IMG/VR virus record: IMGVR_UViG_3300008255_000111
Location: 1 to 64,000 of that record
Reading direction: 5' to 3' (one strand)
DNA: 64,000 nt
Source: a virus
Below are positions 442 through 62,744 of the stretch, in pieces. The notes beneath the pieces are model-generated. The model did not search any database. It was not told where the DNA came from and saw nothing but the letters and a program-made list of their open reading frames with translations. The first letter of the stretch is position 1. Each line of letters opens with the position of its first letter. Both the position numbers and the translations under genes were made by a program.

Positions 442-470
442 CTGCAATCGATTGCTGCAATCGATTGCAG
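442..470. repeat. 16-bp palindrome, overlapping double copy
   Basis: CTGCAATCGATTGCTGCAATCGATTGCAG. Confidence 0.95.
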
Positions 471-1553
471 CTACCAAAGGCGATCGGAGGTAGCGCCGTC
501 CTCAGTCCACTCGCTCGCTTGAACGCGCTGCATCCTCAGCGCCTCAGAGCGCTCAGCGTATGACCCCTTGACCTTCGGCTTAGACTTCTTCGCTGATGAG
601 CGGCGGCCCGTGCTTTCCTTCCAAGACAGCCACGCCCCTCGGCACAGGACATTGATCACGCCGTGGTCCACCCAGCCGAACTCAGCCTCAAGCCATGCCC
701 CATCGCTTTCGCGCTGCTTCTCCACGACATACGCCACATAGGAGAGCACGTCGGGAAGCCCCTCCATCTCAATGACCTTCTCAATCTTCTTAATAGACTG
801 CTCTTTCGGCACCTTCTGCGCGCTCTGGCTCAAAAGGGCATATACCTGAAGCAGCTTGCTCACCTCGGCGCTTACTGGTGCCTGGGCTTTAGAGCGCAGT
901 CGATCTCGACCTCGCTGCTTCACACCCTGAGAACTAGACGTGTCATCAGGGGGCTCAATGGAGCCGAGCGGCCCTTGACCTGATCGATAGTCACCTGGGC
1001 AGTGACCGTCATCAGGCATTGACTGATCGGCGCCACAGGGATCGGCACCATCACCCTCTAAGCGCTCTGGAGTTGGGCACGAGTCGCCGCAGCTTTTCCC
1101 ATCACAATGACGCCTGATGCGAGAGCTGCGCTTGACGTTGGCGTTGAACTTAAGGTGCGACACATACTCCCAGCGCATCCACATCCCGAGCTGCTTATCC
1201 TTGTCCGCGAAGCACACATTGAACGTCAGGCCTGTCGCGCGGCGCCGTTCAAGATAAAGATCAAAGTGCTCCTGCTGGATCGGAAGGCGAACGATCAGGT
1301 TGGTCATCCGGCCATGCTCGCTTGTCGAGCGAGCTTCGCAGGAGATGACCCCCAATTCCTCCAGCTTCTTAATCGCGCTCTGGCGCTGAAACTTGCTAAG
1401 GTGAAGCAACTGCTCGATCTTGAGCGACGACAAGGTGCAATAACCTCGGCGCCAGCACATCTGGTTGATCAAAGAGAGCAGAGCCACCGCAGGGTAGTAT
1501 TGGTGAAGATCAGCGATGACGCAGACATCAAAGTCGGATAACGAGAACAGCAT
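471..1553 (-). CDS. putative replication initiator / replisome-organiser-like winged-helix protein
   Basis: N-terminal AVALLSLI...IEQLLHLSKFQRQSAIKKLEELGVI wHTH pattern, low-complexity linker, helical C-terminal domain. Confidence 0.55.
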   Translation of the reverse strand: MLFSLSDFDVCVIADLHQYYPAVALLSLINQMCWRRGYCTLSSLKIEQLLHLSKFQRQSAIKKLEELGVISCEARSTSEHGRMTNLIVRLPIQQEHFDLYLERRRATGLTFNVCFADKDKQLGMWMRWEYVSHLKFNANVKRSSRIRRHCDGKSCGDSCPTPERLEGDGADPCGADQSMPDDGHCPGDYRSGQGPLGSIEPPDDTSSSQGVKQRGRDRLRSKAQAPVSAEVSKLLQVYALLSQSAQKVPKEQSIKKIEKVIEMEGLPDVLSYVAYVVEKQRESDGAWLEAEFGWVDHGVINVLCRGAWLSWKESTGRRSSAKKSKPKVKGSYAERSEALRMQRVQASEWTEDGATSDRLW

Positions 1554-1892
1554 AAGAAGACCCTATTTGGATTTTCTAGCCGCTCTACCATTGACGAATC
1601 AAAGCGTATCATGAATGATGCTTTTACTGTTTCTTGGTAGGACAGCCAGTACGTTAAGTGCATTAAGAGAGCCTGGGCTAGCGACCCAGGCTCTCTCTTT
1701 TCTTGGTGAGTTGACACTACTCCCGTTTGGCACATCTTGGCAAGGCGTTACTCCCCCTGTTTAGCTCCCCCCTGGTTCCAGGCAGCGAGAGCGAAGCGAG
1801 CGCGCCGCAGTAGTAGTCCTTAACTTTCGAGACAAGGAGCGCAGCGACGCAGGCTCGAAAGTTTAAGGCTCTTGCCCCCTGTATGCTTTAAG

Positions 1893-1936
1893 GGCGAGTT
1901 TACTCGCAGGGGGTAGGCGAGTTTACTCGCAGGGGG
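1893..1936. repeat. 21-bp direct repeat x2 with internal palindrome (iteron-like)
   Basis: GGCGAGTTTACTCGCAGGGGG at 1893-1913 and 1916-1936. Confidence 0.85.
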
Positions 1937-1977
1937 GTGATCCCCCGCTCAAGCGCTTGACTAGAGGCCCATAGACG

Positions 1978-2020
1978 CAAAAAGACCCCTGATCGGATTT
2001 TATCGCCCAGGGGTCTTTTG
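1978..2020. terminator. intrinsic terminator, possibly bidirectional
   Basis: AAAAGACCCCTG...CAGGGGTCTTTT directly after the stop of 2028..2603. Confidence 0.7.
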
Positions 2021-2027
2021 TTCAGCG

Positions 2028-6257: not shown

Positions 6258-6329
6258 GACGCTCTCCTAAGTTGCATGAGGGGTTCTGGAGGTGTCACGA
6301 GTATAAGGCAAGAGGCTGCCAAAACAAAA

Positions 6330-6359
6330 AGGAGCGCTGCAATCGATTGCAGCGCTCCT
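6330..6359. repeat. 16-bp palindrome with extended arms (terminator-like on minus strand)
   Basis: AGGAGCG-CTGCAATCGATTGCAG-CGCTCCT followed by a U-tract on the minus strand. Confidence 0.95.
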
Positions 6360-6386: not shown

Positions 6387-9300
6387 TTAGTCGTCGTTAA
6401 GCAGGCCCATCGCCGCCGCGACACCATCCTCGATCTGGACAAGGAGCAGATCAAGCGATGAGTCCTTGTGGAGCTTGGCGAAGCTGGTCAGATCGACTTT
6501 GCCCTTACCAATGCTCTTGGCCATGTCTCCAAGGTCGCGCGAGGCGGTCACGATCGACGACTTCACGATCTTGTTCTTGGTCACGATCAAGTTCTTGGCG
6601 CCCGACTTGGTGGAGGTCATCGCCACCGTCTTCATGCTCGTGCTCGTGTCGCTGCTTGGCGTGGCCTTAAGCGCGGGCGGGGTGGAGGTCTGGTTGTAGT
6701 CGGTAAGGAAGTTGCGCATCAGCGCAACGGCCCCATGATCGACGATTGCCTGCGCGGGCTCGTAAACCGTCATCCTTAACGTCACCTCAGCGATGTCGCC
6801 AGCATTCTCATGAGCGTTCGTCGAGACAAAGCTGGTCGCCCTCGGGAACAGCGCGTTAAGCCTGAGCTTAAAGTCGTTCTTGAACTTGTAGTTGTTATTG
6901 TCGCTGTGAACTGAGAGCCGACCTGTCAACTCAATCAGACCATCGCTTGTCACATAGGTGGTGAGCGTGTTGACATAGCCGTGGGGCGAAAGAGCTGCGT
7001 CAAGATCCTTGCGCACATTCTGCTCGATCGCAGCGGCGTACTCATTCTTCGACATCGATGGCGTGACTGGTGCGATCGACGTGTCCCCAGCCTCGTCTGG
7101 GTTATAGGTGACTTGCATCATCACGTCACGGCGCATGATCCTGAAGTAGTCCTTCGCGTGGGGGATGCCTTTCTCACTAAGAAAGACGTTCTCAGCACCT
7201 GTTCCAACGTCCATCACAACGTGGAACATGATGCTCAACGACTTATAGGTGCCGTCTGCGTTGAGCACCTTGTCAGGCACCATGCTGTCCACGCCAACAG
7301 TAATGACGAGGCGCTGAGTGAAAGCCTCGATGGCATCCTTCAACTTGCGCTCGTCAAACTTGGCCGAAGCAAGGCGAACTGAGTCGTTAAACTCATCGTA
7401 CTCACGATCGAGCTGGAGGTCTTCGCCCAGCTCAAAGACCAAGCGGTAAGACATCTCAGCCTTGGGGCCTTGCCACGCCTTGCCAGAGACGACAGTCTCG
7501 ATGCGTGTCACAACATCGCTGCTTGCCCCTTCGCCAACGCTCCTGAGCGCCCGCTCAAAGCCCTCGATGTCCTCGTCGGTGACAAAGAGCACATCTTCCT
7601 CCCCATCCTCCTCCTCGTCCTCCCAGGGGTCGTCATAGCCGACTGGAGGCGTGCCACCATAGCCAGGGTACGGCTTGGCTGGATCAAAGTCGCCGTCGTC
7701 ATCACGACGATTACTGCTATTGCTCCAGCGGTCCTCGTTGTCGCTTGGGTCTTCCATCGTGAAGGGCACGGGAGAGCCCGTGATCTTATCGAAGTTCTCG
7801 GGGTTCACGATGACGTTGAGATAGCCCTTCTCATCCACATAGATGTCAACATCGTTGGCTTGAGCGCTCAAGCCAATCTCAGCGAGGCTCCTTGCGGCTT
7901 TGTAGTAGAGAGGATCGGCAAAGTCCTCATTCCACGCATCCTCATCCCAGCCGTCGCCGTCGTTACCATAGTGATCAAGGCGCTCTCGGTTATCCGGGTC
8001 GATCTCGACGTAGATGTTGCCCTTTCCATCGATCTCGTCAGTCCTCACATCGCCAAGCCAGCGCACAGCCTTTTTGACGGTGTAGATGAGATCGTCAAGA
8101 TCGTACTGACCAGCGCTTGAAGCAGACTGAGGTGTCGGTGCATTGGTGCCACGAGCAAACATCGCCGCCAGTTGATCGTAGGCCATAGAGTTGATTGAGA
8201 TGGAGATGCGCCCATCGTCAGAGATGTCAGCCTCATATCGATAGGCATCGATGTTGAGCGTTTTCTCGATGTAGTTCTCCACCTTTGCCTGAAGCGGCAA
8301 GGCATAGTCTTCGTTCCAGCTATCCCAATCATCATCGCCGTCCCAAGACGCCACGCGGTTTGGCGGCTTGATCTCAAAGTAGATATAGCCCCCATCTTGC
8401 GGGACGCCGCCGCTCTTAACCTTGGCGTCAACGATCTTAGTCTCCGAGACCGAGCCCAGAGCGCTAAGGTGACTGGCTAAGGCAGATTGGAGCGCCTTCA
8501 CATCAACATCGGCACTATATGGCGCGCTACTTCCAGTCCTGACTGATGGTGAGGGAGTCACCTGAGAGGCACTTGAAGGCTCAGGAGTTGCAAACACAGG
8601 GCGCGAAGCTGTGGCGGGGGAGTCGAACACTTGGCCCTTCACGTCAATGATGTTGAGCGGGATGCTCGGGTCTGTGCTGAACTGAGCAAACGCCTTCTGC
8701 GTCTTCTCAGCGGCGCCATCCTTGGGGTTGAAGTCTTCAAGGTCAGACTGGCGCTGGAAGGTGATCTCCACGCGATAGGACATGCCGTTGAGGCCAAGGC
8801 CCATATCATCAGCCATAACACGGATGCCATTCATATCCATGTTGGGGTCCGTGCTGATGTAAGCCATGATCAACTGAGCGGCGAAGCTACGCCAATCCTG
8901 CATACGGCGGTCCATCCCATCCGCGAAGTCCCACTCATCGTCTTGGTCGATGTCTTGCCAGTTCTCGGGCTCGATGCGCAGCTCACCATCGACTGTGATC
9001 TCAAAGAGGCCGTTCTCTTTGTTGAGATCAAAGCGGGGCTTGCCGTTGGCGTTCAGGATCTTGTTCAAGAAGCCAAACTTCGTCTCAGCAAGACGCTCGT
9101 TTGTGACACCTGTTGACATCGTAGTTGCTCCATTGGAAGGGGCTCTAGGTGGTTGGGGTGGGGCTGCGTCAGCAGCGGGCTCAGGTGCAGACGCAGGCTT
9201 ATTGGTGGACGGCAGCGGGTTGAACTTGCTGTCGGTCACAATCCCAAGGCTGCGCGAGATGCTCGCGGTTTCGCCGGGCGTCAAGATCAACATCGAGATG

Positions 9301-11561
9301 CCATCGTCCTCGATATCAAGGTCGAGGCTGTCGGCAGTGTGCGTGATTCCAAACTTCGCGAACATATTGATCACGTCGTTCTTCACGCGACGAACAAAGC
9401 TGCTCTCATACCAGTCTTCGTCGCTGTCAAAGTCTCGACGCGTCATGATGTCGCGAGGCTCAAAGGTGATGTAAGACTCGGCCCCAGCAAGCTCAGCCTT
9501 AAGCATCCTGCCGATCGGCTTGAAGGCGTCAATCATGTGCCAGGAGAACGTGTCCTCATCGACTTCCTCTCCTCCTGTGAAGCCGCCTCGATCGACCGTA
9601 GACACAGCCTTCATTCCAGCGGGGATGACCTCGGGGGCAGATGGTGCAGACGCCGCAGACGACATCTCAGGCGCGACCTTGACGGGCTCAGTCGATGCAA
9701 GCGGCATCACGGGGGCGATCGGCGCCGAAGGGGGCGGCACGAGCGACCTGCCCTTGAATGGCTTGGTCGGATCGACGGTGTAGAGCGAAAGCTCCCTTGC
9801 GAGGGCCGATGGGTTGGGGTGGATCTCGACGCCCTCGAACAAACCCTGAGTGAGCTGGCAGATGACCGTGTAGTCCCCACCGCTATTGTCCGCGCCGTTG
9901 AACGTCACGCGCACCTTCATGTGCATGGGGAACAAATCCACGAAGGATGCTCGGATCACAGACGAAAGATCCTCCCAGCGCATATCAAGCTCAGCTAGCT
10001 GCTGACCTGCATTGAACCTGTTGTAAGCGTTGGGCGGCTCGGTTGGCCACCTCACGTTGACCTTAAGCTCGTCGTAAGCTCCATCGTCTTTACGACGAGA
10101 CATGCTGACCCTAAGCGCCTTGGTGAGAAGCGCTTTGACAGCAGCTTCAACTCGCCCCGGCACAACCTCGATAACGCCACCTGATTGATTCTCGGCCATC
10201 GATTTCACCCTCGTGATAATGTCGATCGTATTTTTGATAAGTTCTTGAGATTTCTTCTGTTTTAAGCCCCTGAGCAGCGCCGCGCTGTCAACGCTCTTGG
10301 TGTCACGCGCCACAGCGTCAGCGAGCGCTTGAGCTGCTGAGGCGATCTGAGCAGGGTTGCCGCCTTCGATGGCATTCCTAAAGGCCCGGTTCGCTGACTG
10401 CACAAAGGTCGTATTTGTCCAGCCCACGATAAACTTATGAACGCTGTTCGCATCAGCGATCAGGTCAGGCACGTTGGTGCGCCCTTCCAGCTTACGCGTC
10501 ATCTTAAAGAAGCCGTCAGCTCCAGCAAGAAGATCCTGCCCCACATCGACGCTGCGCTCACCGCCCCCAACCCTGTTGATCGGAGCGGCTGGGCGACCCC
10601 AGCATGGGAGCGCGGGATCAGACGTAAACTCCTGAAGCGTGCTCAGCATCCTGTTCATGTTGTAGCTGACAAACTGGAGCTGATTGAGCTTGTTCTTGAC
10701 CTGCTCAGCGACGTAGGTGATCTCAATGCGATACCTCATGCCGCTCTTGTTAAAGCCCAAGGCTTTGCACGAGGCTTTGATCGGCGTCTGCGTGAGCGTG
10801 TTGGACACACCCGTTTGGATCAGCGACTCAATGGTGATGGGCGCGGCGTTGAAGCGATCAAGGATCTCATCGCGCCAGCGCACATAAGTCTCCTGATCCG
10901 CCCCAAGCTCGTTCAAGTGCACCTCAAGCTCGTTAGGATTGCCGCTGAGGTTGAACTTTGATCTGGACACACCAATGAGCGTCAAGACGCTCTCTTTCCC
11001 TGTGACGATGTGGTTGCGTGCTTGAAGGTCAACGTTAAGGAAGGGGCTGAACATCTGAACAAAGATGTGAGAGGACGGCAGGTCATTCCCAAGGAAGGGC
11101 ACAGGCTGGGCGTCGGTGACTGCACCAAAGGTCTGCGCCAGCTTCTCAGCGCCATCACCCTTCATGGTGATGAGCACATAACCCAGGCGGACCACTTCAA
11201 GCGCGTAGTCAATCTTCTCGACCAGCTCAAAGCGCCCGAAGATGCGCCTGATCTCGCTGAGCGCAGGTTCAAAGCGCGCGTACCATTCAAGGGTCGGCTG
11301 CTCTTTCTCAAGGCGATCAGCGATGAAGCCGTCAAGCGTCTCGCGCTCACCGCCAAGCAGCGAGAATGAGAGCGTGTTGCGCACATCATATTCGATCTCG
11401 CTTGCCAGCTCCTTCAAGAGCGGGGGGCTGGTCGGCTGCTGAGTGAAGATCGCCTTAAGTGACTCAACGATCTTATCAAGATCGTAGTCTAAGCCTTGGA
11501 TGACAGCTTCGTTCAAACCAAGGAACGCATCCATCCTCTCGCTCAAAGTACCTTTGCTCAT
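6387..11561 (-). CDS. giant (~1720 aa) acidic repeat protein, putative internal virion protein
   Basis: long ORF; LSERMDAFLGLNEA N-terminus; repeated acidic domains with Pro/Ala/Ser linkers. Confidence 0.7.
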   Translation of the reverse strand: MSKGTLSERMDAFLGLNEAVIQGLDYDLDKIVESLKAIFTQQPTSPPLLKELASEIEYDVRNTLSFSLLGGERETLDGFIADRLEKEQPTLEWYARFEPALSEIRRIFGRFELVEKIDYALEVVRLGYVLITMKGDGAEKLAQTFGAVTDAQPVPFLGNDLPSSHIFVQMFSPFLNVDLQARNHIVTGKESVLTLIGVSRSKFNLSGNPNELEVHLNELGADQETYVRWRDEILDRFNAAPITIESLIQTGVSNTLTQTPIKASCKALGFNKSGMRYRIEITYVAEQVKNKLNQLQFVSYNMNRMLSTLQEFTSDPALPCWGRPAAPINRVGGGERSVDVGQDLLAGADGFFKMTRKLEGRTNVPDLIADANSVHKFIVGWTNTTFVQSANRAFRNAIEGGNPAQIASAAQALADAVARDTKSVDSAALLRGLKQKKSQELIKNTIDIITRVKSMAENQSGGVIEVVPGRVEAAVKALLTKALRVSMSRRKDDGAYDELKVNVRWPTEPPNAYNRFNAGQQLAELDMRWEDLSSVIRASFVDLFPMHMKVRVTFNGADNSGGDYTVICQLTQGLFEGVEIHPNPSALARELSLYTVDPTKPFKGRSLVPPPSAPIAPVMPLASTEPVKVAPEMSSAASAPSAPEVIPAGMKAVSTVDRGGFTGGEEVDEDTFSWHMIDAFKPIGRMLKAELAGAESYITFEPRDIMTRRDFDSDEDWYESSFVRRVKNDVINMFAKFGITHTADSLDLDIEDDGISMLILTPGETASISRSLGIVTDSKFNPLPSTNKPASAPEPAADAAPPQPPRAPSNGATTMSTGVTNERLAETKFGFLNKILNANGKPRFDLNKENGLFEITVDGELRIEPENWQDIDQDDEWDFADGMDRRMQDWRSFAAQLIMAYISTDPNMDMNGIRVMADDMGLGLNGMSYRVEITFQRQSDLEDFNPKDGAAEKTQKAFAQFSTDPSIPLNIIDVKGQVFDSPATASRPVFATPEPSSASQVTPSPSVRTGSSAPYSADVDVKALQSALASHLSALGSVSETKIVDAKVKSGGVPQDGGYIYFEIKPPNRVASWDGDDDWDSWNEDYALPLQAKVENYIEKTLNIDAYRYEADISDDGRISISINSMAYDQLAAMFARGTNAPTPQSASSAGQYDLDDLIYTVKKAVRWLGDVRTDEIDGKGNIYVEIDPDNRERLDHYGNDGDGWDEDAWNEDFADPLYYKAARSLAEIGLSAQANDVDIYVDEKGYLNVIVNPENFDKITGSPVPFTMEDPSDNEDRWSNSSNRRDDDGDFDPAKPYPGYGGTPPVGYDDPWEDEEEDGEEDVLFVTDEDIEGFERALRSVGEGASSDVVTRIETVVSGKAWQGPKAEMSYRLVFELGEDLQLDREYDEFNDSVRLASAKFDERKLKDAIEAFTQRLVITVGVDSMVPDKVLNADGTYKSLSIMFHVVMDVGTGAENVFLSEKGIPHAKDYFRIMRRDVMMQVTYNPDEAGDTSIAPVTPSMSKNEYAAAIEQNVRKDLDAALSPHGYVNTLTTYVTSDGLIELTGRLSVHSDNNNYKFKNDFKLRLNALFPRATSFVSTNAHENAGDIAEVTLRMTVYEPAQAIVDHGAVALMRNFLTDYNQTSTPPALKATPSSDTSTSMKTVAMTSTKSGAKNLIVTKNKIVKSSIVTASRDLGDMAKSIGKGKVDLTSFAKLHKDSSLDLLLVQIEDGVAAAMGLLNDD

Positions 11562-11634
11562 CTCCAACATTCTCCTTGGCGCCCGGCTGGTCCGGGCTAC
11601 GTCCATGTCATGCGCGCTGCTGTTGGGCCGCCCG

Positions 11635-12660: not shown

Positions 12661-12796
12661 TCTTTTCCCTCAAGTAACGTCTGGTGGTGATTCAAGCACG
12701 CACGACTACGCGTCTTCTAATGGCGGTCACGAGTCTTATCGATTATGACCTCAAGCCTTGTTACAGCGTAAGACTAAGTGAAGCCACTTATAAAAA

Positions 12797-12832
12797 AAAC
12801 ACCCGGCTGCAATCGATTGCAGCCGGGTGTTT
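12797..12832. repeat. 16-bp palindrome with extended arms (terminator-like)
   Basis: AAACACCCGG-core-CCGGGTGTTT; long U-tract on the minus strand. Confidence 0.95.
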
Positions 12833-17345: not shown

Positions 17346-17363
17346 GTTGGTTTCCTTCAACAA

Positions 17364-17401
17364 AAATGAGGTAGCTGCAATCGATTGCAGCTACCTCATT
17401 T
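17364..17401. repeat. 16-bp palindrome with extended arms (terminator-like)
   Basis: AAATGAGGTAG-core-CTACCTCATTT. Confidence 0.95.
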
Positions 17402-18213: not shown

Positions 18214-18289
18214 TTGGCGGTTGACGTTGAGTTGGGCGGCTTCGTTGCCGCCGATACATAGAACTTGACAGCGACTAGACTTGGCGCAA
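18204..18289 (-). promoter_or_regulatory. promoter plus two leader hairpins
   Basis: TTGCGC(18284-18289)-N16-CAAGTT; GGCGGC-AACGAA-GCCGCC; CCGCC-AAATGAA-GGCGG 18204-18220. Confidence 0.75.
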
Positions 18290-18290
18290 G

Positions 18291-18413
18291 TTAAAAATCG
18301 TCGTCCTCCTTATTTTCCGAGGGTTTGTTGTCGAAGCTGATGTTGACCGCCGCACTAAGAGCAACAATCAACATCACTGCGAGCAGCAGCACATCCATGA
18401 CATCATTAGACAT
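18291..18413 (-). CDS. small membrane protein
   Basis: GGAGGT RBS; single TM segment. Confidence 0.55.
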   Translation of the reverse strand: MSNDVMDVLLLAVMLIVALSAAVNISFDNKPSENKEDDDF

Positions 18414-18489
18414 ATACACCTCCTGGCAGGCTGGCCCGTCCAGCCTATGACTTGAGATAATCATGTCACGACTAAACCCGAGCATCCAG

Positions 18490-18975
18490 TCATTTTCTAG
18501 CTGAATCGAGCCCGTAGACGATTAGGATGGTGGTCGCCACGCCAAGGGCAAACCCCATCTCTCCCCTGTATCGGTTGAACCAGCCCGACTGCGCTTCGCG
18601 CTCAGCTTTAAGCTGCTCGTCAGACCACTTCAGATACTTATCGGCCACCTGATTGCTTACCTCACCAGACCGCCAGTTGAACAAGGCGATCGAATACGCC
18701 TCGTCCATGTAGATGCGCTGCTTTGCCACGGAAAGCGCCTGCCCTTGAGTAAGGCAGACGCCTCCTTGTGGTAGCCCAAGCGTCAACATCGCCTCGCGCT
18801 CCTGGGCAGTGTAGGGCTCAGCGGGAAGGCCCACAGCGCCGCCTTGACCATCACTGACGGGCGGAGGCTTCGGCTTCATGAAGCTGACGACCACAGGAGG
18901 CTGTGAGGGCTTTGGTGTGGGTGTGCTGCAACCCCACATAAGGGCGAAGATGAGCGTAATCGACTGAAGTTTCAT
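18490..18975 (-). CDS. lipoprotein with C-terminal TM (unimolecular spanin candidate)
   Basis: lipobox LMWG-C, Pro-rich linker, C-terminal GFALGVATTILIVYG. Confidence 0.6.
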   Translation of the reverse strand: MKLQSITLIFALMWGCSTPTPKPSQPPVVVSFMKPKPPPVSDGQGGAVGLPAEPYTAQEREAMLTLGLPQGGVCLTQGQALSVAKQRIYMDEAYSIALFNWRSGEVSNQVADKYLKWSDEQLKAEREAQSGWFNRYRGEMGFALGVATTILIVYGLDSARK

Positions 18976-18986
18976 GAGAGCGCCTA

Positions 18987-19808
18987 CTATGGGGCTTGCG
19001 AGCGCACAAGCGCGATCGTTTGAGAGCTGGGGTGTCGGATCAGCCTACACAGATCGGACGGCCATGTGATCTGATTATAGCGGTCCTGATCGTCAACCCC
19101 AAGTAAGCGCAGCTCGCTCAGCTTCTTTTCCAGTACAAGCCATCGCTGACCTTGCGTGATGACCACGCTTCCTTCCTTCATGACACGAGCTGCAATCGAT
19201 TGCAGACGCTTAGCCCTGCGCCAGTCGCCCCGCGCTGAGACGCGAACGGAAAACGGCTCAACAATCCACAGCCCACGACAAAGCTCAATGGCTCCATCGG
19301 GCAGGCCCGCAGAACCATCATCAGCCAAGATCCAGCGCTTTCGGTGCTCGCCACAGTAGAGGTAGGTGTTGCCTGACGACTTGAGGATGCAACCCACGGC
19401 AAGATCCATCCTGTCAGCGCGCGGCATGTCAGCGATGATCAGACCGAGCCCAGCAGCTTGCACGTCGTCGTAAAGCTCAAGGTGCTCAGCCCAGAAGTCG
19501 CCATCGGATGACCAAGAGATGCGGCTCAGCTCTTTCACAAAGAGCGGCTTGATTCTATTGCGGCGCCCAAAAACAGCCGCATGGTGAGAGATGAAAGCGG
19601 GCAGCTCATCGTCACCACTCATCTTCACGCCAACATAGACCCACGATCCATCTTCACCAGCAAGCTCGGCCCTCGCCCCAAAGTAAGGCACGGAACCAAA
19701 GCGCTCGTAGTAGCGCATCAAAAACATGACAGCCTCAAACTTGAAGGGCTGGCAACGTTGCCAGCACTTCAAGTTAAGCTCAGTGCGAGGCGCCTGACAA
19801 GAGGTCAC
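18987..19808 (-). CDS. hypothetical protein
   Basis: GTGA overlap with the upstream gene; carries the palindrome in-frame (LQSIA). Confidence 0.6.
   Translation of the reverse strand: MTSCQAPRTELNLKCWQRCQPFKFEAVMFLMRYYERFGSVPYFGARAELAGEDGSWVYVGVKMSGDDELPAFISHHAAVFGRRNRIKPLFVKELSRISWSSDGDFWAEHLELYDDVQAAGLGLIIADMPRADRMDLAVGCILKSSGNTYLYCGEHRKRWILADDGSAGLPDGAIELCRGLWIVEPFSVRVSARGDWRRAKRLQSIAARVMKEGSVVITQGQRWLVLEKKLSELRLLGVDDQDRYNQITWPSDLCRLIRHPSSQTIALVRSQAP
19190..19205. repeat. 16-bp palindrome (intragenic)
   Basis: CTGCAATCGATTGCAG. Confidence 0.95.
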
Positions 19809-20782
19809 TCAAGCTCGTTGAACATTAAGCCCTGCTGATGAAACACGTTAGAGACGCGCTGCATCACGGCGCTCAAGGTGCTCTTGTTGTCAAGGTCGAT
19901 CACTCGGCAGCTCACCATCGAGCTTGGACCCTCGGGGTAGACCAGCGTGAACACCATGCCATAAGAGCGCCCGTAAGGCAGGAGGTCGATGCTTAAGGTG
20001 CCCTGGTTCGTACTCAGCTCAACGCTGGTTGTATTGCCAGAGCGTCGCACGCTGCCACTCGACAAGACATGCGCCATCGGCAGCGTGTACTGAGGCAGCA
20101 TTTCGACGATCGCGTCCACATAAGACTGGAGCACGGCGCCAAGGTCGTTCACGTCAACGTCCTTCATCCAGTTGGCGACGAACGAGTCGTCAGGCGGATC
20201 GCCGCCCTTATTCTCGAACATCATCCCCTGGTCCATGCACATCTTGCGCAGGTCGTTCACCTTGGACACGCTCAAGCCGACCTTGCTTGCGATGGTGCTC
20301 GGGGATGCGCCGCCCTTAAGCATGTTCAGCGCGCTGTTGGCGTTCTCGGCGGAGATCCCAAGCATCTTGGCCAGCTTGGGAACGCTTGGCGTCGGGTTGG
20401 GGTTGGCCTTGTCAGGCTCAGGCCCAAGGAACTTCATCACCTCCCTCGCCTCACCGATGACCATGATGGTCCGCCCATTCTTCTCGGCAAAAGAGAAGGT
20501 TTCGGCCCCCTTGGTCATCTCAACGACGTTGCGAGCCGTGGACCCTAAAGACGAGTAGCCTGCGTGCTTGAGACGACCAGTCACCTCGGCCAAGCCCTTC
20601 CTGAAGATGATCGCCTCGCCGCGTCCAAGATGGTGCTTGACGCGCGCATCGAGCCCATACAGGCCGACGCTTTCGACGATACCGTCCATCTTGGAGTGCT
20701 TCTTGTCCTTGTCTTTGCCCTTACCCTCGTCGCCACCCTCAAGCTCTGCTTCGATCTGCTCTAACAAACCCATTTGATTCAC
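19805..20782 (-). CDS. HTH-containing protein, putative internal head protein
   Basis: GASPSTIASKVGLSVSKVNDLRK HTH; LLEQIEAELEG N-terminus. Confidence 0.55.
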   Translation of the reverse strand: MNQMGLLEQIEAELEGGDEGKGKDKDKKHSKMDGIVESVGLYGLDARVKHHLGRGEAIIFRKGLAEVTGRLKHAGYSSLGSTARNVVEMTKGAETFSFAEKNGRTIMVIGEAREVMKFLGPEPDKANPNPTPSVPKLAKMLGISAENANSALNMLKGGASPSTIASKVGLSVSKVNDLRKMCMDQGMMFENKGGDPPDDSFVANWMKDVDVNDLGAVLQSYVDAIVEMLPQYTLPMAHVLSSGSVRRSGNTTSVELSTNQGTLSIDLLPYGRSYGMVFTLVYPEGPSSMVSCRVIDLDNKSTLSAVMQRVSNVFHQQGLMFNELE

Positions 20783-21647: not shown

Positions 21648-21663
21648 CTGCAATCGATTGCAG
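21648..21663. repeat. 16-bp palindrome
   Basis: CTGCAATCGATTGCAG just after the stop of 21666..22292. Confidence 0.95.
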
Positions 21664-21665
21664 CG

Positions 21666-22292
21666 TTAAGACTTGCGCTTGTGGAGGTCATAGCCGACCA
21701 AACGCCCGGAGGTAATGTCGACAGCGATCTGGATCGCCCTAGCCTGCGCAGCAGCTCCTCGCCACGGCGCCATCATAAAGAAGTAGCCTCCCGAGGTCAT
21801 GATCTTGGCGATCCTATTGATCTGCTCGTCGCTGATCTCACCATAACGCTCAAAGTCCACCATCATCGTCTGCGTGTATCCGCGCCACTCCCACTCAGCC
21901 CTCATGGTGTAGAGCGTGGGAAAGAACAGCACATAGCTCAGCGGGAACCAGACGGGGTGTGCCTCGCGGTCAAGCATGTGAGCCATCTCATGACGCAAGA
22001 TGCCATAGAGCACGCCCTCGAAGTTGGGGTCTTCGACGTAGCGCCTTGAGGGCAACCACACCTCGTTACCAAACACAGTGACATAGTGCTTATCGAAGTC
22101 GCGGTGAAAGCGTCCTCGGCTCAGAAAGCCCATCACAGCATAGAGCGCCTTAACAAAGCACACTGCCACGCGGTAGTGAATGGCGAGCCCGGCATAACCA
22201 TCGGATTTGAAGCGCAGACTAAAGCCACTAAAGCGCTTCTCCATGAGCCTTTGGAGGCCCGCTGCATCTTTTGGCAACCCTGAATAGGACAT
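21666..22292 (-). CDS. zincin-like metallopeptidase (HEXXH)
   Basis: YVTVFGNEVW; ILRHEMAH; RAEWEWRGY. Confidence 0.7.
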   Translation of the reverse strand: MSYSGLPKDAAGLQRLMEKRFSGFSLRFKSDGYAGLAIHYRVAVCFVKALYAVMGFLSRGRFHRDFDKHYVTVFGNEVWLPSRRYVEDPNFEGVLYGILRHEMAHMLDREAHPVWFPLSYVLFFPTLYTMRAEWEWRGYTQTMMVDFERYGEISDEQINRIAKIMTSGGYFFMMAPWRGAAAQARAIQIAVDITSGRLVGYDLHKRKS

Positions 22293-22359
22293 AAAAAAAC
22301 CCCGCGTAGTCATAGCGACTACACGAGGTTAGCTCAGAGGTCGGCCAAAACAAACGGTT

Positions 22360-24120: not shown

Positions 24121-24396
24121 TCAAGGTCGGGAGAGGGTCTAGCTGCCTTTCTGACGCAATCAAGCCAACGGACTGTGGGTCAGCCCCCAATATCTTGAAC
24201 CATCACGGCGCGCATCAGCTTGACCATTAGACTCAAGATCAATCAGCGCGAACAGCTCAGCGTCAGACACAAAGCGGGAGGACACCTGCGTGTCCGTCCT
24301 CACCTCGTGAATGACCTGCGCCCAAGCCACAACTTCAGCGTGGCTCGGCGGCAAATCATCAAACATCATCAGACCTGACTTCAGGGGCAACGGCAC
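24121..24396 (-). pseudogene. truncated lytic transglycosylase (SLT-like) fragment
   Basis: FALIDLESNGQADARRDGSRYWGL, then an abrupt stop before the expected Q and the rest of the domain. Confidence 0.55.
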
Positions 24397-24405
24397 GGGC
24401 CGCTG

Positions 24406-24915: not shown

Positions 24916-24931
24916 CTGCAATCGATTGCAG
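24916..24931. repeat. 16-bp palindrome
   Basis: between a stop codon and the next RBS. Confidence 0.95.
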
Positions 24932-26241: not shown

Positions 26242-26661
26242 TCAGCTTGACGAGCCGAACTCCTCCTCATGGCATTTAAGCCAGCGCCTCAGCGTGCTCT
26301 CAGCCACACCATGCAGCTTCGCGATGTGGCGCTTGGAGTAACCCTCACTGAGCAGCCTGCGCGCGGTGCGGCAGATGTAGACGACATCGCGGCGGCGCCT
26401 CACTGCGCGCTTAGGAGCGGGGCTCGGCGCCTCTTTCTTGACAAGTCGAGCTGCCTTGACTGCGACAAGATCCAGGTAGATCCCAAGCCCGCTCTCATCA
26501 GAAAGCTCGACCTTGAGCTGTCGCGTTACTTCAACGACCTGAAAGCGGTGCGGGCCGCCTGCTCCTGGCACCATAATCATGTCACCAACGCGAGGCGTGG
26601 CAGACGAAAACGTCTGGCGCGCATGATCCGGCAATCCATGTCCTACCAATGTCCAAGACAT
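26242..26661 (-). CDS. HTH DNA-binding protein
   Basis: LLSEGYSKRHIAKLHGVAESTLRRWLK. Confidence 0.75.
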   Translation of the reverse strand: MSWTLVGHGLPDHARQTFSSATPRVGDMIMVPGAGGPHRFQVVEVTRQLKVELSDESGLGIYLDLVAVKAARLVKKEAPSPAPKRAVRRRRDVVYICRTARRLLSEGYSKRHIAKLHGVAESTLRRWLKCHEEEFGSSS

Positions 26662-26682
26662 AACACTCCTTCGGGCTTCGCC

Positions 26683-29481: not shown

Positions 29482-29503
29482 GAACTGCAATCGATTGCAG
29501 TTC
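29482..29503. repeat. 16-bp palindrome with short arms
   Basis: GAA-core-TTC. Confidence 0.95.
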
Positions 29504-33068: not shown

Positions 33069-33260
33069 GCCCTGTCTAGGGCGGCAGCTTGAAACTTGAG
33101 GTATAGGTCGCCTCGTTGAGCTGACTCGTCTTAAGCGATTCTAGGGCCTTGGCACTAGCCCTGTCTAGGGCGTGAGCTGAAGACTTGAGGTATAGGGTTG
33201 GATGTCTAAGATGAATCGTCTTGGGCGATTCTATGGGCTTTAAAACTGGCCCTGTATAGG
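33069..33260. repeat. ~90-bp degenerate tandem repeat (2 units plus partial third)
   Basis: units start GCCCTGT(C/A)TAGG at 33069, 33158, 33249; shared ACTTGAGGTATAGG and TCGTCTT..GCGATTCTA blocks. Confidence 0.85.
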
Positions 33261-33293
33261 TTTGAGGCCCCTGACTCGGTGTGAAGTAGGCGC

Positions 33294-33321
33294 AAAAAAA
33301 GCCCCCCTCGCAAGGGGGGCT
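33294..33321 (-). terminator. intrinsic terminator
   Basis: AGCCCCCC/GGGGGGCT stem with a U7 tract on the minus strand. Confidence 0.8.
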
Positions 33322-35671: not shown

Positions 35672-35709
35672 CTCGGGCTCTCCTGCGGGTTGAATAGGTG
35701 ACTTGGATG

Positions 35710-35735
35710 AATGACTGCAATCGATTGCAGTCATT
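35710..35735. repeat. 16-bp palindrome with extended arms
   Basis: AATGA-core-TCATT. Confidence 0.95.
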
Positions 35736-37657: not shown

Positions 37658-37705
37658 GACTTGCTCCTGCGGGAAAGTCGGGTTTGGGATGACGAGAAGT
37701 TCGGG

Positions 37706-37731
37706 CTTAGCTGCAATCTATTGCAGCTAAG
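37706..37731. repeat. 16-bp palindrome, central variant, with extended arms
   Basis: CTTAG-CTGCAATCTATTGCAG-CTAAG. Confidence 0.9.
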
Positions 37732-43563: not shown

Positions 43564-43591
43564 GTAGAGCTGCAATCGATTGCAGCTCTAC
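43564..43591. repeat. 16-bp palindrome with extended arms
   Basis: GTAGAG-core-CTCTAC. Confidence 0.95.
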
Positions 43592-46947: not shown

Positions 46948-46963
46948 CTGCAATCGATTGCAG
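46948..46963. repeat. 16-bp palindrome
   Basis: immediately upstream of an RBS. Confidence 0.95.
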
Positions 46964-49378: not shown

Positions 49379-49855
49379 CTACTCGCAGATGCACGCGTCG
49401 GATTGGCGCTTTAGCTCTGCGTCAAGCGCGTCAACGCGCGCGGTGAGTTGGCGGATCTCATCGTCCTTCGCCTCAAGCTGCTCAATCAGTCCGTTTACAG
49501 CCTGGGCGGTGTAATAAGACTTGGGGAGCTTGAGCATGTTTTCAAGGTAAGGCTTGAACGCTTCAAGGGCCTTGGGCGGGGTCGCTTTGACAGCTTGTCG
49601 CATCGCCGCGTTGATGCTGAGCAAAAACGACTCATCGATCCTGGCCAGGGAGTCTTGGATGTAGCCCCAGGCGCGAGGATATACCTCGAACGTATCACCA
49701 ATCGCGCACTGGCCGATCATGCTGCCCGTCTCATCGTTGACGACTGTGATCCCAAAGGTCGCCCCCACGTTTAAATCGGAGGTCTTGAAAGTGACATCGA
49801 GAGCGTTATCGCGGGCTGCCTCTTGGAACATCTCAAACAGCTTGGGAATGGGCAT
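49379..49855 (-). CDS. hypothetical protein with C-terminal coiled coil
   Basis: AGGAG RBS. Confidence 0.65.
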   Translation of the reverse strand: MPIPKLFEMFQEAARDNALDVTFKTSDLNVGATFGITVVNDETGSMIGQCAIGDTFEVYPRAWGYIQDSLARIDESFLLSINAAMRQAVKATPPKALEAFKPYLENMLKLPKSYYTAQAVNGLIEQLEAKDDEIRQLTARVDALDAELKRQSDACICE

Positions 49856-49887
49856 GACTGACTCCTGCGGGTAAAATGGGGGGTGAA

Positions 49888-49913
49888 GTGAGCTGCAATC
49901 GATTGCAGCTCAC
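49888..49913. repeat. 16-bp palindrome with extended arms
   Basis: GTGAG-core-CTCAC. Confidence 0.95.
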
Positions 49914-49923
49914 CTTGGGGAGA

Positions 49924-53846: not shown

Positions 53847-53862
53847 CTGCAATCGATTGCAG
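53847..53862. repeat. 16-bp palindrome
   Basis: abuts the RBS of the next gene. Confidence 0.95.
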
Positions 53863-58973: not shown

Positions 58974-60290
58974 TTAGTGTTTGATGATCAAGCCATTCAT
59001 GGCGCGCGAGTAGGCGACGTACAGCAGCCTCGCCCTCATGTTGAGGTCGTAGCGCGTGGTGCCCATGATGTCGCTGTAATCCACAGCGCAATATTTAAAG
59101 CTGGAGCCTTGGCTCTTGTGGACCGTGCAGGCGAAGGGCGGCTTGAGCCACGCGAACTGCTCCTTGAGCGCGTAAAAGTCCTTCCAGTTGCGCTTCTTGA
59201 TCGCCTTAGCTTTGAGTTGCGCGAGGGCCTTGTTGTAGGCGCCCATGTCCTCGGGCGCGACGGTCAAGACTTGGCAGGTGCTTCCATCATCAGCTTTGAG
59301 GCTCAGCTTCCAGACCGAGGCTGTGAAGTCAGGGCTGTGGAAGGGGCTGCGCTCAGCTTCCATGACCTCGACCTGCTGCTCGTTATACAGGACGATCGAG
59401 TCATTAACGACATACGACTCATTGGCCACAAGGCGCTCACCGACCAAGTAGTCTTCCACGTCGCCGCCGTATAGCTCACGGCGCACGACCCTGTTGAGCG
59501 CGTCAACTGTCCTGTTCGTGTATGCGATGATCTTCACGTCCTCACCAGCTCGCACAAGCTCCATGACGCGATCTTTAAAGGGTGCGCCTTTGTGCAGCTC
59601 GACGAAGGACTCAGGCGTCCCTCCAGCTCCAGGCAGCATATTCCTGTCCAAGACGTTATCAATGAGCGCGTTGCGGGGCATGGCCACGGCGTCGCTGATG
59701 ATGCCGTCATAGCGCATGATCTGACTTAGGGTTTTGCTCTCCACGTCGAATGACTCGGAAAGCTCCATGCTGTCACTTACCGGGGGGAGCTGAAGCGGAT
59801 CGCCCATGCAAATGACCTTGGTGCCATAAGCGGCGGCTGCGTCGGTGATGTGTGTCCACAGCTTAGTGTCAAGCATCGAGCACTCATCCACGACAAGCAC
59901 CCTGAAGTTATGGACCTTGACGGCCCGGTGATTGACCTCAAAGGTCATCTCACCAGAGGTCTTGTTCTTGGCGGGGCGAAGCCCTAGCAGGCTGTGGACG
60001 GTGTTATATTCTGGCGTCCACGACGTACTGGCTAGCTTCTTTCCATCGATGAGCGAGGTGGAGCCGAGCGCTTCTGCCTTACTGCCCATGCCAGCGAGCA
60101 CGCCCACCGCTTTATGCGTCGGAGCGGTCATCGCCATAGAGACAGTAGGGAACTCTCTAAGGACCGCTGCCACGGTGGCGCTTTTGCCTGTGCCAGCGTA
60201 ACCGAAGACGCCGACGAACTTCTGGGCCGGATCTAGCATAAACTCCTGAAGGCGGAGCGCCGCCCCAAGCTGATCTGGGTTGAGCTTCAT
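58974..60290 (-). CDS. Dda/RecD-like superfamily 1B DNA helicase
   Basis: GYAGTGKS, APTHKA, VVDECSM, GDPLQLPPV, TVHKSQGSSF, LYVAYSRA. Confidence 0.95.
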   Translation of the reverse strand: MKLNPDQLGAALRLQEFMLDPAQKFVGVFGYAGTGKSATVAAVLREFPTVSMAMTAPTHKAVGVLAGMGSKAEALGSTSLIDGKKLASTSWTPEYNTVHSLLGLRPAKNKTSGEMTFEVNHRAVKVHNFRVLVVDECSMLDTKLWTHITDAAAAYGTKVICMGDPLQLPPVSDSMELSESFDVESKTLSQIMRYDGIISDAVAMPRNALIDNVLDRNMLPGAGGTPESFVELHKGAPFKDRVMELVRAGEDVKIIAYTNRTVDALNRVVRRELYGGDVEDYLVGERLVANESYVVNDSIVLYNEQQVEVMEAERSPFHSPDFTASVWKLSLKADDGSTCQVLTVAPEDMGAYNKALAQLKAKAIKKRNWKDFYALKEQFAWLKPPFACTVHKSQGSSFKYCAVDYSDIMGTTRYDLNMRARLLYVAYSRAMNGLIIKH

Positions 60291-60304
60291 TTAAACTCCA
60301 TGAG

Positions 60305-60320
60305 CTGCAATCGATTGCAG
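60305..60320. repeat. 16-bp palindrome
   Basis: in the helicase leader just before its RBS. Confidence 0.95.
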
Positions 60321-60498: not shown

Positions 60499-61503
60499 CT
60501 AAGCTAACAGGGGCGATGAACGCTCACTTGGAGGCGCGAGGTCTAAAGCTCCAAGCATATACCTGTCAATGAGATAGCCGTACTTCCAGAACTTCTTGAG
60601 CGTGGCCACCATGAACGCTCGGGCGGGCAGCGGGGATAGGTGACTGATAGCAACCATCTGCATCACAGCAGACAGCAACGCTTGACTCGACGAGCCCGTC
60701 TCAAACTGGCTGCGTGGGCGAAAGCCAGCCTCGGGCGGCACGATCATGTTGTTCTCGGCCACCTCTTTCTCGAAGATCATTGCCACGATCTCAGCGGCGA
60801 ACCAGCCCACCGCGTTGCCTTCAAGGTGGTCGATGTTCTCCATCAGGAACCAATGGCCTTCCAACTTATCTGGAAGCGCTCCTGATGGTGTAGGGATGAG
60901 CTGGATCAGATCGCCTCCAGTGAGATACTGGCGCTCAATATGCTCCGAGCTGTTGAACATGCGCGAGGTGCGATCGTCGCCTTCTTGGCTGATGTAGAAG
61001 ACGGGATTCTCAGTCACCTGCACAGCCTCAACCTTAAGGCGGACGGTCGGAAAGGCGCTATGACCGGGCTTGTGTGGGGGCCAGTTGATCAGCTCACACC
61101 ATTCAAAGCGTGCCTCGCCAAAGATCACGCCGATCGGCACGCCAAGCGCGACAGGACAGTGAAAGTCGCCAAGCGACTCGGTGAGCTTGATGCGCTCGCG
61201 ACCGAGATTCAACACCTCTCCAGGCTTCAGGCTGTTATGGCGAGTTCTCCACCACACGCCTGAGTGCCTGTCGTCACCAGTGAAGGGCGGGGCCGTCTCC
61301 AAGAACGCTTGCTTACCTTTCGCAAGCTCCTCAAAGCAAGCAAGCTCCTCGGCTGTTGGTGGTGTGGGGTAGAGCTTCTTGGTTGAGTGGTTGACGATCT
61401 CAAGCTCGTCAACAACCCCTCGCGCGAGCAAGTAAGAGGCGATCGGGCTGAGGCGCAAGCCTTGCTTGGGAAACGTGGCCAAAGGCGGGTTAGAAGCGCT
61501 CAT
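60499..61503 (-). CDS. hypothetical protein
   Basis: AAGGA RBS before MSASN. Confidence 0.65.
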   Translation of the reverse strand: MSASNPPLATFPKQGLRLSPIASYLLARGVVDELEIVNHSTKKLYPTPPTAEELACFEELAKGKQAFLETAPPFTGDDRHSGVWWRTRHNSLKPGEVLNLGRERIKLTESLGDFHCPVALGVPIGVIFGEARFEWCELINWPPHKPGHSAFPTVRLKVEAVQVTENPVFYISQEGDDRTSRMFNSSEHIERQYLTGGDLIQLIPTPSGALPDKLEGHWFLMENIDHLEGNAVGWFAAEIVAMIFEKEVAENNMIVPPEAGFRPRSQFETGSSSQALLSAVMQMVAISHLSPLPARAFMVATLKKFWKYGYLIDRYMLGALDLAPPSERSSPLLA

Positions 61504-61531
61504 GTCTTTGTCCTTAGAGGTGATAAGGGCG

Positions 61532-62425
61532 TTAAGTGGGAACGACACCGCGCTCCCAATTGACAATGAAAAAGGTGGTGCTGACAGCGTTGCGAACGTA
61601 AAGCCACGATTGATCTATTGGATCAATGAGAAGATCAAGCGGGTTCTTACCGGGGAAGCTGGGGGAGGCGCCTTGTGGCGCAGTCTTAAACCAAATGCTT
61701 GGTCCGAGATCAAGATCAATACTGCTGTTAATGTTGGCAGCCGACATCATGATACCACGCGTGGGACGCAAAGTGCCATCCACACTTGTAGACATTCCAG
61801 TAGAAGGGAACGAAGCAAACGCCTGATACCATTGGGCGACACCACCCTCATCAAGACCCCTGATTCGACTCCCGTTGGTTTGAGTGGTCGTGTTGAACCA
61901 ACAATTGGTGCCGCTGCTTGCGGGCGCGCCAACAAGAACAGCGTGACCATCTATACCCCTAAGCTCGTCGCCATCCTCCATTGGATTGAACAACTTGCCA
62001 ACCATGATGCCGCTCGGAAGTAACGATTTGCCTGGGTCTTGAAAGAGGACTGCGATGGCGCTGTCATACTCGCAGACAAAGAACCTCGTTGAGATCGACG
62101 GGAAAGAGCCGCCAGACCTGCACTCGGGCGACATGTTGGCAGATCCTGTCGGCTCGGTTGAAGCATCACCTGCGCTGTCAATCGAGCTATCTGGATCGAG
62201 CACAGCTCCAAGCTGAGTCGTGCCAACCCTCCTTATGGCGATGTGACTGATAGAGTCTGCTTTTGCTCGGATCGCAAGCGACTCACCAGCGACAGGTGGT
62301 GCGCCTGGGACAAGCTCCCATCTCCCTGGAGCAGTCGTAAAGTGAGCGATGAGCGCGGCCATCACATCTGACAGCGCAGTCGTGGCCGCATCAAGCGTGT
62401 AAGTCTTTGTGTCACTGTATCCCAT
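61532..62425 (-). CDS. putative virion structural (tail/fibre-associated) protein
   Basis: Gly/Ser/Thr-rich beta composition; N-terminal LSDVMAALIAHF...W pattern. Confidence 0.5.
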   Translation of the reverse strand: MGYSDTKTYTLDAATTALSDVMAALIAHFTTAPGRWELVPGAPPVAGESLAIRAKADSISHIAIRRVGTTQLGAVLDPDSSIDSAGDASTEPTGSANMSPECRSGGSFPSISTRFFVCEYDSAIAVLFQDPGKSLLPSGIMVGKLFNPMEDGDELRGIDGHAVLVGAPASSGTNCWFNTTTQTNGSRIRGLDEGGVAQWYQAFASFPSTGMSTSVDGTLRPTRGIMMSAANINSSIDLDLGPSIWFKTAPQGASPSFPGKNPLDLLIDPIDQSWLYVRNAVSTTFFIVNWERGVVPT

Positions 62426-62452
62426 ACCTCTCGCCTCTCATTGGTGAGCGTT

Positions 62453-62716
62453 TCAACTAAAGTCCAGCGAGGACTCAGGCAGCTTGGTCGTCGTGGGTTC
62501 GCCAGAAGCGAGCACGGCGCTTGCTCCTGCGTTGACAACAGATGACTCAAAGCCTCGGGCGATCCTATCGGGATAGACCGCGATCACCACAACCCCTTCA
62601 AGCTCACCAAAGGGAACAGGCCCGGCATAATCGTCCCCATCAGGGTCAAACCCGCGCGACTGCCAGTTGTAGTAGGTGTTGCTTATTGCGTGATAGCCCC
62701 TGTTCGTCGCTGCCAT
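62453..62716 (-). CDS. hypothetical protein, likely structural
   Basis: GAGGTG RBS. Confidence 0.55.
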   Translation of the reverse strand: MAATNRGYHAISNTYYNWQSRGFDPDGDDYAGPVPFGELEGVVVIAVYPDRIARGFESSVVNAGASAVLASGEPTTTKLPESSLDFS

Positions 62717-62728
62717 ATTCACCTCTCG

Positions 62729-62744
62729 CTGCAATCGATTGCAG
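62729..62744. repeat. 16-bp palindrome
   Basis: abuts the RBS of the next gene. Confidence 0.95.

Follow-up and report, generated by a model that had tools for sequence, protein, structure and literature searches.

A 16-bp palindrome dispersed over a phage genome belongs to an undescribed family of evenly spaced DNA words, with a ParB/KorB-like dimer as candidate reader

The first 64,000 bases (the window) of the IMG/VR viral contig IMGVR_UViG_3300008255_000111, called G000 here, contain a 16-bp palindrome, CTGCAATCGATTGCAG, that recurs every few kilobases. We found that this palindrome belongs with other evenly spaced DNA words of the form TGCAAY-NN-RTTGCA, a family without earlier description that is carried by a broad phage group, cultured phages included. 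The palindrome is very likely a DNA site on which a protein docks, and a protein family resembling PHROG 17202 is somewhat favored as its reader. The best explanation as a whole, to which we give an even chance, is a DNA docking site read by a dimer with a ParB/KorB-like helix-turn-helix (HTH) and forming a global operator network like that of KorB and its operator OB.

G000 is 104,952 bp long, with a CheckV completeness estimate of 81%. When up to two mismatches were allowed, 19 matches to the palindrome were found in the window, 16 exact and 3 with one mismatch, against a chance expectation of 0.03; none of 100 shuffles reached 19. A preliminary description of the window had listed 18 loci, counting the 442/455 pair as one, and all matches were recovered at exactly those positions. 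Of the three one-mismatch copies, that at 442 shares 3 nt with the exact copy at 455, and those at 30720 (G9>A) and 37711 (G9>T) are altered at the same central G, as had been described. The whole contig has 29 copies (24 exact and 5 one-mismatch). Gaps in the window range from 1.1 to 6.5 kb, as reported before, and copy spacing in G000 is more regular than random (coefficient of variation (CV) 0.56, P = 0.0006). Two of the checks that the description had proposed, a full-contig count and a test of spacing regularity, came out in favor of a dispersed motif.

Nearly all G000 genes are on the minus strand. On the coding strand, copies are placed in short spacers, many of them directly behind the upstream gene's stop codon or hairpin, and lie 12–54 nt before the next start. 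In long spacers, copies are usually close to the start, as are those at 60305 and 62729, which lie 12–14 nt before the start and 178–336 nt after the previous stop. With a coding fraction of 0.888, at most 7 of the 29 copies are in open reading frames (ORFs; binomial P = 9e-16), and only four (19190, 70087, 77154 and 83456) are truly gene-internal. It was correctly stated that nearly all copies are intergenic and that most sit between a stop codon and the next ribosome-binding site or within terminators. No other conserved sequence was found around the copies; identical copies carry unrelated flanks.

An exact scan of IMG/VR showed that many other contigs also have the 16-mer in several copies. 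In ten further uncultured contigs (G001–G010; guanine-plus-cytosine (GC) content 38–61%), what is conserved is the 14-mer TGCAAT-NN-ATTGCA; the G000 form is 16 bp long with an outer C…G. Among palindromes of the 6-N2-6 type, TGCAAT-N2-ATTGCA ranks first by a wide margin in each of the 12 genomes scanned de novo. The carriers across this GC range have almost no DNA or protein similarity; G001–G010 have almost no proteins in common with G000, except for distant structural genes in G001 and G006. In most genomes the copies lie at more regular intervals than random placement would give (CV 0.44–0.62, P ≤ 0.001 in six).

Eight of the ten contigs have a common replication/recombination module, consisting of a loader, a DnaB-like helicase, a primase, a gp32-like single-stranded DNA-binding protein, a superfamily 2 (SF2) helicase, a RecA-like protein and a Cas4-like exonuclease. 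Cultured phages bearing this module also have the word, in 48 copies in RcTiptonus, 34 in DLP_3, 25 each in SIO-2 and KarBoss, 19 in RcZahn, 18 in TM16 and 12 in PJ32. The reversed word, serving as a control, had no match in the uncultured contigs and cultured phages tested. A search of the full-text literature gave no description of the word.

The word varies within limits. The central CG is not kept in the relatives, which have CA, TG, TA, AT or any NN. A TACAAT variant is common in G009 and RcTiptonus, with TATAAT or TACAAT on the upstream half, while the asymmetry of RcZahn (ACTGCA) is in the other half of the word. The word of TM16 is a hybrid, TGCAAC-AT-ATTGCA. A distinct sub-variant, GGCAATTGATTGCA, occurs five times in G001 (26091, 32922, 39626, 100055 and 131550), which suggests site classes of differing affinity.

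A host chromosomal repeat of the repetitive extragenic palindrome type was ruled out. In 185,579 bacterial and archaeal species genomes (596 Gb), the 16-mer was found, among the matches listed, only as scattered singletons across phyla at about chance level. The preliminary description had held that an abundant host repeat lacking conservation in related phages would speak against its proposal; the word is neither a host repeat nor unconserved in relatives. It is also hardly credible that the word is a selfish or mutational by-product, such as a spreading palindromic mini-element, without any reader. The identical copies with unrelated flanks would suit such an element, but the word is conserved across phages of widely different GC content with almost no similarity, is evenly spaced, persists within genes in all frames and has a variant that alters both half-sites symmetrically.

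Which protein could read the word was addressed by co-occurrence. A family resembling PHROG 17202 is present in every contig with the module and in all cultured carriers (DLP3_062, RcTiptonus gp82 and SIO-2 VPEG_00074 are members in cultured phages), and 18 of the 18 genomes that encode it have the word or a variant. Its gene is located in the replication/recombination module, among the RecA-like, Cas4-like and RuvC genes. An AlphaFold model of the candidate reader has a confident helical core at residues 110–242, with a predicted local distance difference test (pLDDT) score of 83–89. The top Foldseek matches of this core were Spo0J-parS (4umk), then ParB and Noc, with E about 0.1 and probability 0.99. 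VIA-align gave Spo0J (1vz0; Z 9.3, root-mean-square deviation 2.6 Å over 107 residues), ParB-parS (6s6h; Z 9.3) and operator-bound KorB (1r71; Z 6.7 over 106 of 114 residues), followed by KorB with cytidine triphosphate (CTP), SopB, VirB and P1 ParB. Profile searches found no ParB_N CTPase domain in the family.

The candidate reader is predicted to be a homodimer, the dimer model having an interaction score (ipSAE) of 0.73 versus 0.00 for the best control, contacts agreeing by at least 95% between runs and pLDDT of at least 76. This ipSAE mark was reached by 20 of 30 solved homodimers and by 1 of 23 monomers. The analogy to ParB-type sites that had been drawn earlier fits a co-occurring family with a ParB/Spo0J/KorB-like HTH domain in such a predicted dimer; the earlier proposal of a genome-wide mark bound by a dimeric phage protein gains support as well, such a protein being the most likely reader.

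The candidate reader gene has a word copy no more than about 100 nt upstream of it in at least 9 of 16 genomes; in G007, G009 and G005 a canonical promoter lies between site and gene. Judged by its layout, a site plus promoter before the reader gene would be the pattern expected of an autoregulated early regulator.

Variants of the word and of the candidate reader go together. HJ05 and L338C have only divergent homologs of the family and no TGCAAT sites, and they carry the symmetric variant TGCAAC-NN-GTTGCA in 25 and 54 copies, respectively. In G009 (whose plus-strand ORFs are doubtful) and RcTiptonus alike, the polar TACAAT variant goes with a putative recognition helix that is distinct. This pairing is what co-evolution of reader and site would predict, with the links confounded by shared ancestry.

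For the phage of the window, the candidate reader gene is very probably carried by a separate 38-kb contig, G004, which would be the missing segment of its genome as judged by gene order and composition. When reversed, G000 is collinear with G001 at 92–120 kb and ends exactly where the capsid, portal, terminase, reader and replication genes of G001 follow. G004 carries those genes and ends at the same syntenic point as G000. The two contigs agree in GC content, in their exclusive use of the 16-mer and in their habit of extended stems, and their tetranucleotide correlation is 0.989, versus at most 0.68 for all other genomes. All 4 sequencing runs that contain G000 also contain an 18.3-kb half of G004, at 99% or more throughout. 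G004 encodes the candidate reader (18240–19085), with only about 25 residues before its HTH core, and a ParB_N protein (26621–27442) just upstream of the terminase.

Public short-read contigs end precisely at those G004 copies that have long stems (palindrome >31 bp), for example at 20722–20755 and 24374–24405. Long palindromes in this lineage probably break short-read assemblies, explaining the recovery of the genome in pieces.

The ParB_N protein of G004 offers another reading, namely that in this lineage the reader is a canonical ParB_N, an orphan ParB clamp loading at parS-like sites. The size and symmetry of the site are parS-like, and ParB_N proteins are present in G002–G005, G007, G009, DLP_3, TM16, RcTiptonus and L338C. 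However, they are absent from six complete word-rich genomes (G001, G010, RcZahn, PJ32, SIO-2 and KarBoss), so ParB_N cannot be the shared reader, and we regard it as quite improbable for this lineage. The idea that genes of the ParB type co-vary with the word stands for the candidate family with its ParB-like HTH, which tracks the word throughout, but not for canonical ParB_N.

Other candidate readers were rejected. The word had been likened to LacI-family operators, a resemblance that led nowhere: none of 11 genomes encodes a LacI HTH (PF00356), and relatives do not keep the central CG. A sigma factor domain (Sigma70_r2) was found only in G005, and no HTH_3 (Xre-type) protein was found in G000 or G004. 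A small MerR-like HTH protein is encoded in G001, G005–G008, DLP_3, PJ32 and RcTiptonus and undetectable in G009, G003, G004 and G000; in many, not all, phages of the group it sits between the SF2 helicase and the RecA-like gene. Beside it is a second conserved small protein, family B, which is not universal either. An integrase, on which a lysogeny 'stoperator' idea would rest, was found in only one of the 11 uncultured contigs (G005).

We compared DNA-level and RNA-level signals at the copies. Those in the window are as follows, the extra pairs being copy-specific complementary bases that lengthen the palindrome.

442–470: two overlapping copies, 442–457 (one mismatch) and 455–470 (exact), adjoining the stop codon of the minus-strand gene 471–1553
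6319–6359, minus strand: copy 6337–6352 at a hairpin tip with 7 extra pairs per side, then a T-run on the coding strand; terminator-like, after the gene for a 1739-residue protein
12787–12832, minus strand: copy 12807–12822 at a hairpin tip with 10 extra pairs, A-tract before and T-run after; like a bidirectional terminator
17358–17401, minus strand: copy 17375–17390 at a hairpin tip with 11 extra pairs and a T-run; next start 29 nt downstream
19190–19205: exact copy within the predicted minus-strand ORF 18987–19808
21648–21663: exact copy, 2 nt past the stop of gene 21666–22313
24916–24931: exact copy filling a short spacer, 2 nt past a stop and 21 nt before the next Shine–Dalgarno sequence (SD) and ATG
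29485–29500: exact copy behind an upstream hairpin, 17–20 nt before the SD and ATG of gene 28817–29476
30720–30735: one-mismatch copy, with CA instead of CG at the center
31827–31854: copy 31833–31848 with 6 extra pairs per side
35710–35735: copy 35715–35730 with 5 extra pairs; next start 43 nt away
37706–37731: one-mismatch copy 37711–37726 (center CT) with 5 extra pairs; next start 53 nt away
43564–43591: copy 43570–43585 with 6 extra pairs, behind a hairpin and 22 nt before SD and ATG
46948–46963: exact copy behind a hairpin, 23 nt before the next start
49886–49915: copy 49893–49908 with 7 extra pairs; next start 37 nt away
53847–53862: exact copy, 14 nt before SD and ATG
60305–60320: exact copy upstream of the Dda-like helicase gene 58974–60290, 14 nt from its start and 178 nt past the previous stop
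62729–62744: exact copy, 12 nt before the start codon and 336 nt past the previous stop

In DLP_3 and RcTiptonus, where all genes are on one strand, about half of the copies are deep within long genes, such as those for the tape measure, a polymerase and pyruvate phosphate dikinase; about 20 of the 34 copies in DLP_3 are so placed. Across the genomes, the 63 deep-intragenic copies use all three reading frames (41, 15 and 7 copies), with a preference for the cysteine-free reading xQ(S/L)IA. Because all three frames are used, selection acts on the DNA word.

It had been proposed that the word could be a uniform RNA-processing hairpin. An RNA hairpin, CUGCAA-UCGA-UUGCAG, as the functional form for processing, stability, termination or translational control is very improbable. 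In its favor, stems are extended by 4–12 copy-specific pairs in 11 of 29 G000 copies and 5 of 10 G004 copies, versus a control rate of 0.4–0.6%, and 3 of the 19 window copies (6337, 12807 and 17375), along with a few in G004, are terminator-like, with an extended hairpin and a T-run. On the other hand, none of 214 copies in nine other genomes is extended, and neither the remaining window copies nor any copy in those nine genomes has the terminator pattern. No compensatory changes were found in the word core across relatives, where the core is either invariant or broken in its pairing; the common variants TACAAT (G009, RcTiptonus) and ACTGCA (RcZahn) give A·C mismatches on the sense strand. In this phage the 'loop' is as conserved as the stem, and intragenic copies are frequent in relatives. 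Because extensions are confined to G000 and G004, the core lacks compensatory changes and many copies are within genes, the hairpin is a secondary use limited to this lineage, at terminator tips, and not the conserved function.

Alternatively, the word could be a compact promoter, with its TGCAAT or TACAAT half acting like a −10 element and the start near the 3′ end of the word, used by RNA polymerase with a phage factor. The order terminator, word, SD and ATG recurs, with the word 12–54 nt from start codons and 0–13 nt between T-run and word, leaving no room for another promoter. The polar TACAAT or TATAAT on the upstream half in G009 and RcTiptonus points the same way, as does the lack of enrichment of sigma70-type promoters in the window. 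The word is no ordinary sigma70-type promoter with −35 and −10 hexamers 16–18 bp apart: its flanks are unconserved, and no strong promoter is beside any site in G000. A perfect palindrome, however, has no direction, and this one comes with no −35 or other flank signal and has G at the key −11 position, which is poor for sigma70. No sigma factor or phage RNA polymerase tracks the word, the many copies deep within DLP_3 genes would be misplaced, RcZahn has its asymmetry in the other half, and the G007 word lies upstream of complete canonical promoters. We consider a compact promoter improbable.

Each of the strongest canonical promoters of G007 and G010, TTGACA-16/17-TATAAT or TAAAAT, has a copy that ends 5–11 nt upstream of its −35 element; the places are 67004, 69952, 86523 and 99805 in G007 and 88877 and 117443 in G010.

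In the operator explanation that we prefer, a symmetric dimer of a phage-encoded DNA-binding protein would bind TGCAATCGATTGCA duplexes (unit TGCAAT-NN-ATTGCA) at sites every few kilobases, mostly in short spacers at gene 5′ ends or at transcription-unit boundaries. Through a global operator network, the bound dimers would time or insulate the transcription units of the phage, in the KorB-OB manner. The reader would regulate its own gene from the site before it, and some sites would have been built into terminator hairpin tips in this lineage. Taken by itself, transcriptional control as the role is possible, at rather less than an even chance.

The main alternative to the operator role keeps the reader but makes the task a physical one or one in replication and recombination: the evenly tiled sites could organize, compact, tether, protect or counter-silence the chromosome in a Noc/VirB-like way, or mark places for recombination-dependent replication. 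Such a role would go well with spacing that is even regardless of gene structure, with the deep copies in long DLP_3 and RcTiptonus genes in all three frames, and with a candidate reader gene among RecA-like, Cas4-like and RuvC genes. It would not account for the G000 sites avoiding genes and staying close to the next start in long spacers, nor for sites flanking the strongest promoters in G007 and G010, and ParB, Noc and VirB spread by means of a CTPase domain that the candidate reader lacks. We regard it as unlikely.

Several observations weigh against the operator network with the proposed reader. The transcriptional role is weakly supported: many sites of the relatives are deep within long genes, and sites are beside strong promoters only in G007 and G010. 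The preliminary description had seen no gene for a binder in the window, and the candidate reader gene is indeed absent from the window and from the 105-kb contig. G004 and G000 have no suffix-prefix overlap, their link being strongly argued rather than an assembled join, and in G004 no site precedes the candidate reader gene. The mean pLDDT of the candidate reader model is 64. The fold match is middling, given the Foldseek E value and a Z of 9.3, which falls short of the value of about 13 recommended for helical domains; in VIA-align, Raf1, an unrelated protein, scores as high as the ParB-type matches (Z 9.8). No ParB match appears at the sequence level, as a PDB sequence profile search was empty and the only Pfam match, to DUF3102, was below threshold. 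What ties the candidate reader to the word is co-occurrence in a single phage clade, where shared ancestry is a confounder, and the polar asymmetric variants (27:5 in G009) are unexpected for a plain symmetric dimer.

G000 is a novel myovirus as judged by its predicted genes, which include a tail sheath, a baseplate hub, a Dda-like helicase, an intein-bearing ribonucleotide reductase and a DNA methyltransferase. No close cultured relative was found; megablast of 20 kb against GenBank phages had no match, and tblastn with the tail sheath gave only distant ones. The contig is present in aquifer metagenomes and one hot-spring metagenome (23 public runs listed, none of them of RNA). PHROG and Pfam profile searches of the large window proteins yielded no DNA-binding candidate. 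The 1739-residue ORF (6387–11606, minus strand) has no PHROG or Pfam match; it is bounded on either side by a palindrome copy, with 6.5 kb between the two, the widest gap in the window.

Outside the window, G000 69545–74887 (minus strand) encodes a 1780-residue large subunit of ribonucleotide reductase that has endonuclease- or intein-like insertions, and the palindrome copy at 70087 within this gene is read as LQSIA. The DNA methyltransferase gene (G000 93140–93985, minus strand) is among tail and baseplate genes; the palindrome contains ATCGAT and TCGA. An extended ribosome-site context, CCCGCAGGAG, recurs before several starts downstream of copies (35670–35700, 37660–37690 and 49855–49880, minus strand). 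At 33138–33318 (minus strand), the region's best sigma70-like promoter, TAGACA-18-TAGAAT (33167–33138), comes after a strong terminator-like hairpin (33318–33302), and this may be an early promoter region.

The closest known systems involve plasmid and chromosomal proteins of the ParB type. KorB is a global regulator with 12 OB operators, a 13-bp palindrome, near and far from promoters on the IncP plasmid RK2, and works as a sliding clamp that depends on CTP, has a ParB N-terminal domain and is partnered by KorA (PMC11790492). As with KorB-OB, one short palindrome is scattered here over the whole replicon, the candidate reader is a predicted dimer with a ParB-type HTH, and its core aligns with the operator-bound DNA-binding domain of KorB. 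Unlike KorB, the candidate reader has no ParB N-terminal domain, and no partner was identified. The sites are also denser, about 30–50 per 100 kb, evenly tiled and in phages instead of a plasmid, and for these phages we only infer binding and regulation.

The site resembles the 16-bp parS of ParB/Spo0J and the 14-bp Noc-binding site in size and symmetry, and Noc sites are likewise dispersed over a genome. The DNA-binding domains of ParB/Spo0J are the best structural matches of the candidate core, two of them solved on parS DNA (4umk and 6s6h). The candidate differs from ParB and Noc in having no CTPase domain, no ParA and no sequence-level similarity, and the word in these phages is another one. 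No segregation or membrane-tethering role is indicated here, and most of these phages are without integrases.

Dispersed sites have precedents in phages, such as the 'stoperators' of mycobacteriophage L5 gp71, the C1 operators of P1 and the SopB centromere repeats of N15; those of L5 and P1 are asymmetric and serve prophage maintenance. Common to these and the present word are many copies of one short site genome-wide, mostly in short intergenic spacers; that one protein binds all copies here is what we infer. Unlike the L5 and P1 sites, the present site is palindromic, integrases are rare among its uncultured carriers and the candidate reader family is unrelated.

We consider it an even question whether this phage site-and-reader pair extends the ParB/KorB theme in a clamp-less, phage-borne and genome-tiling form. 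More tentatively, and with doubt prevailing, a large and widespread clade of siphoviruses and myoviruses of Proteobacteria would have the palindrome every 2–4 kb over the entire chromosome, genes included, read by a co-evolving, clamp-less and HTH-only descendant of the ParB/KorB fold, as a new genome-tiling system. Such a system would set the transcription-unit program or the physical state of the phage chromosome, a reading of the same tentative standing. The clade includes SIO-2-like vibriophages, Delepquintavirus, the Rhodobacter RcF cluster and RcZahn, and Rhizobium L338C and TM16.

Experiments can address the idea directly, since the word and a candidate protein are known, natural T-type and C-type specificity variants exist and several hosts can be cultured. 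If it is true, dozens of sequenced and cultured phages, some of them under consideration for therapy against Stenotrophomonas and Vibrio, would have in common an unnoticed pair of cis-element and regulator that touches nearly every transcription unit. The pair would explain the short conserved spacers and provide a handle for switching phage gene expression, and the plasmid logic of KorB-OB would be extended to viruses, without the CTP clamp.

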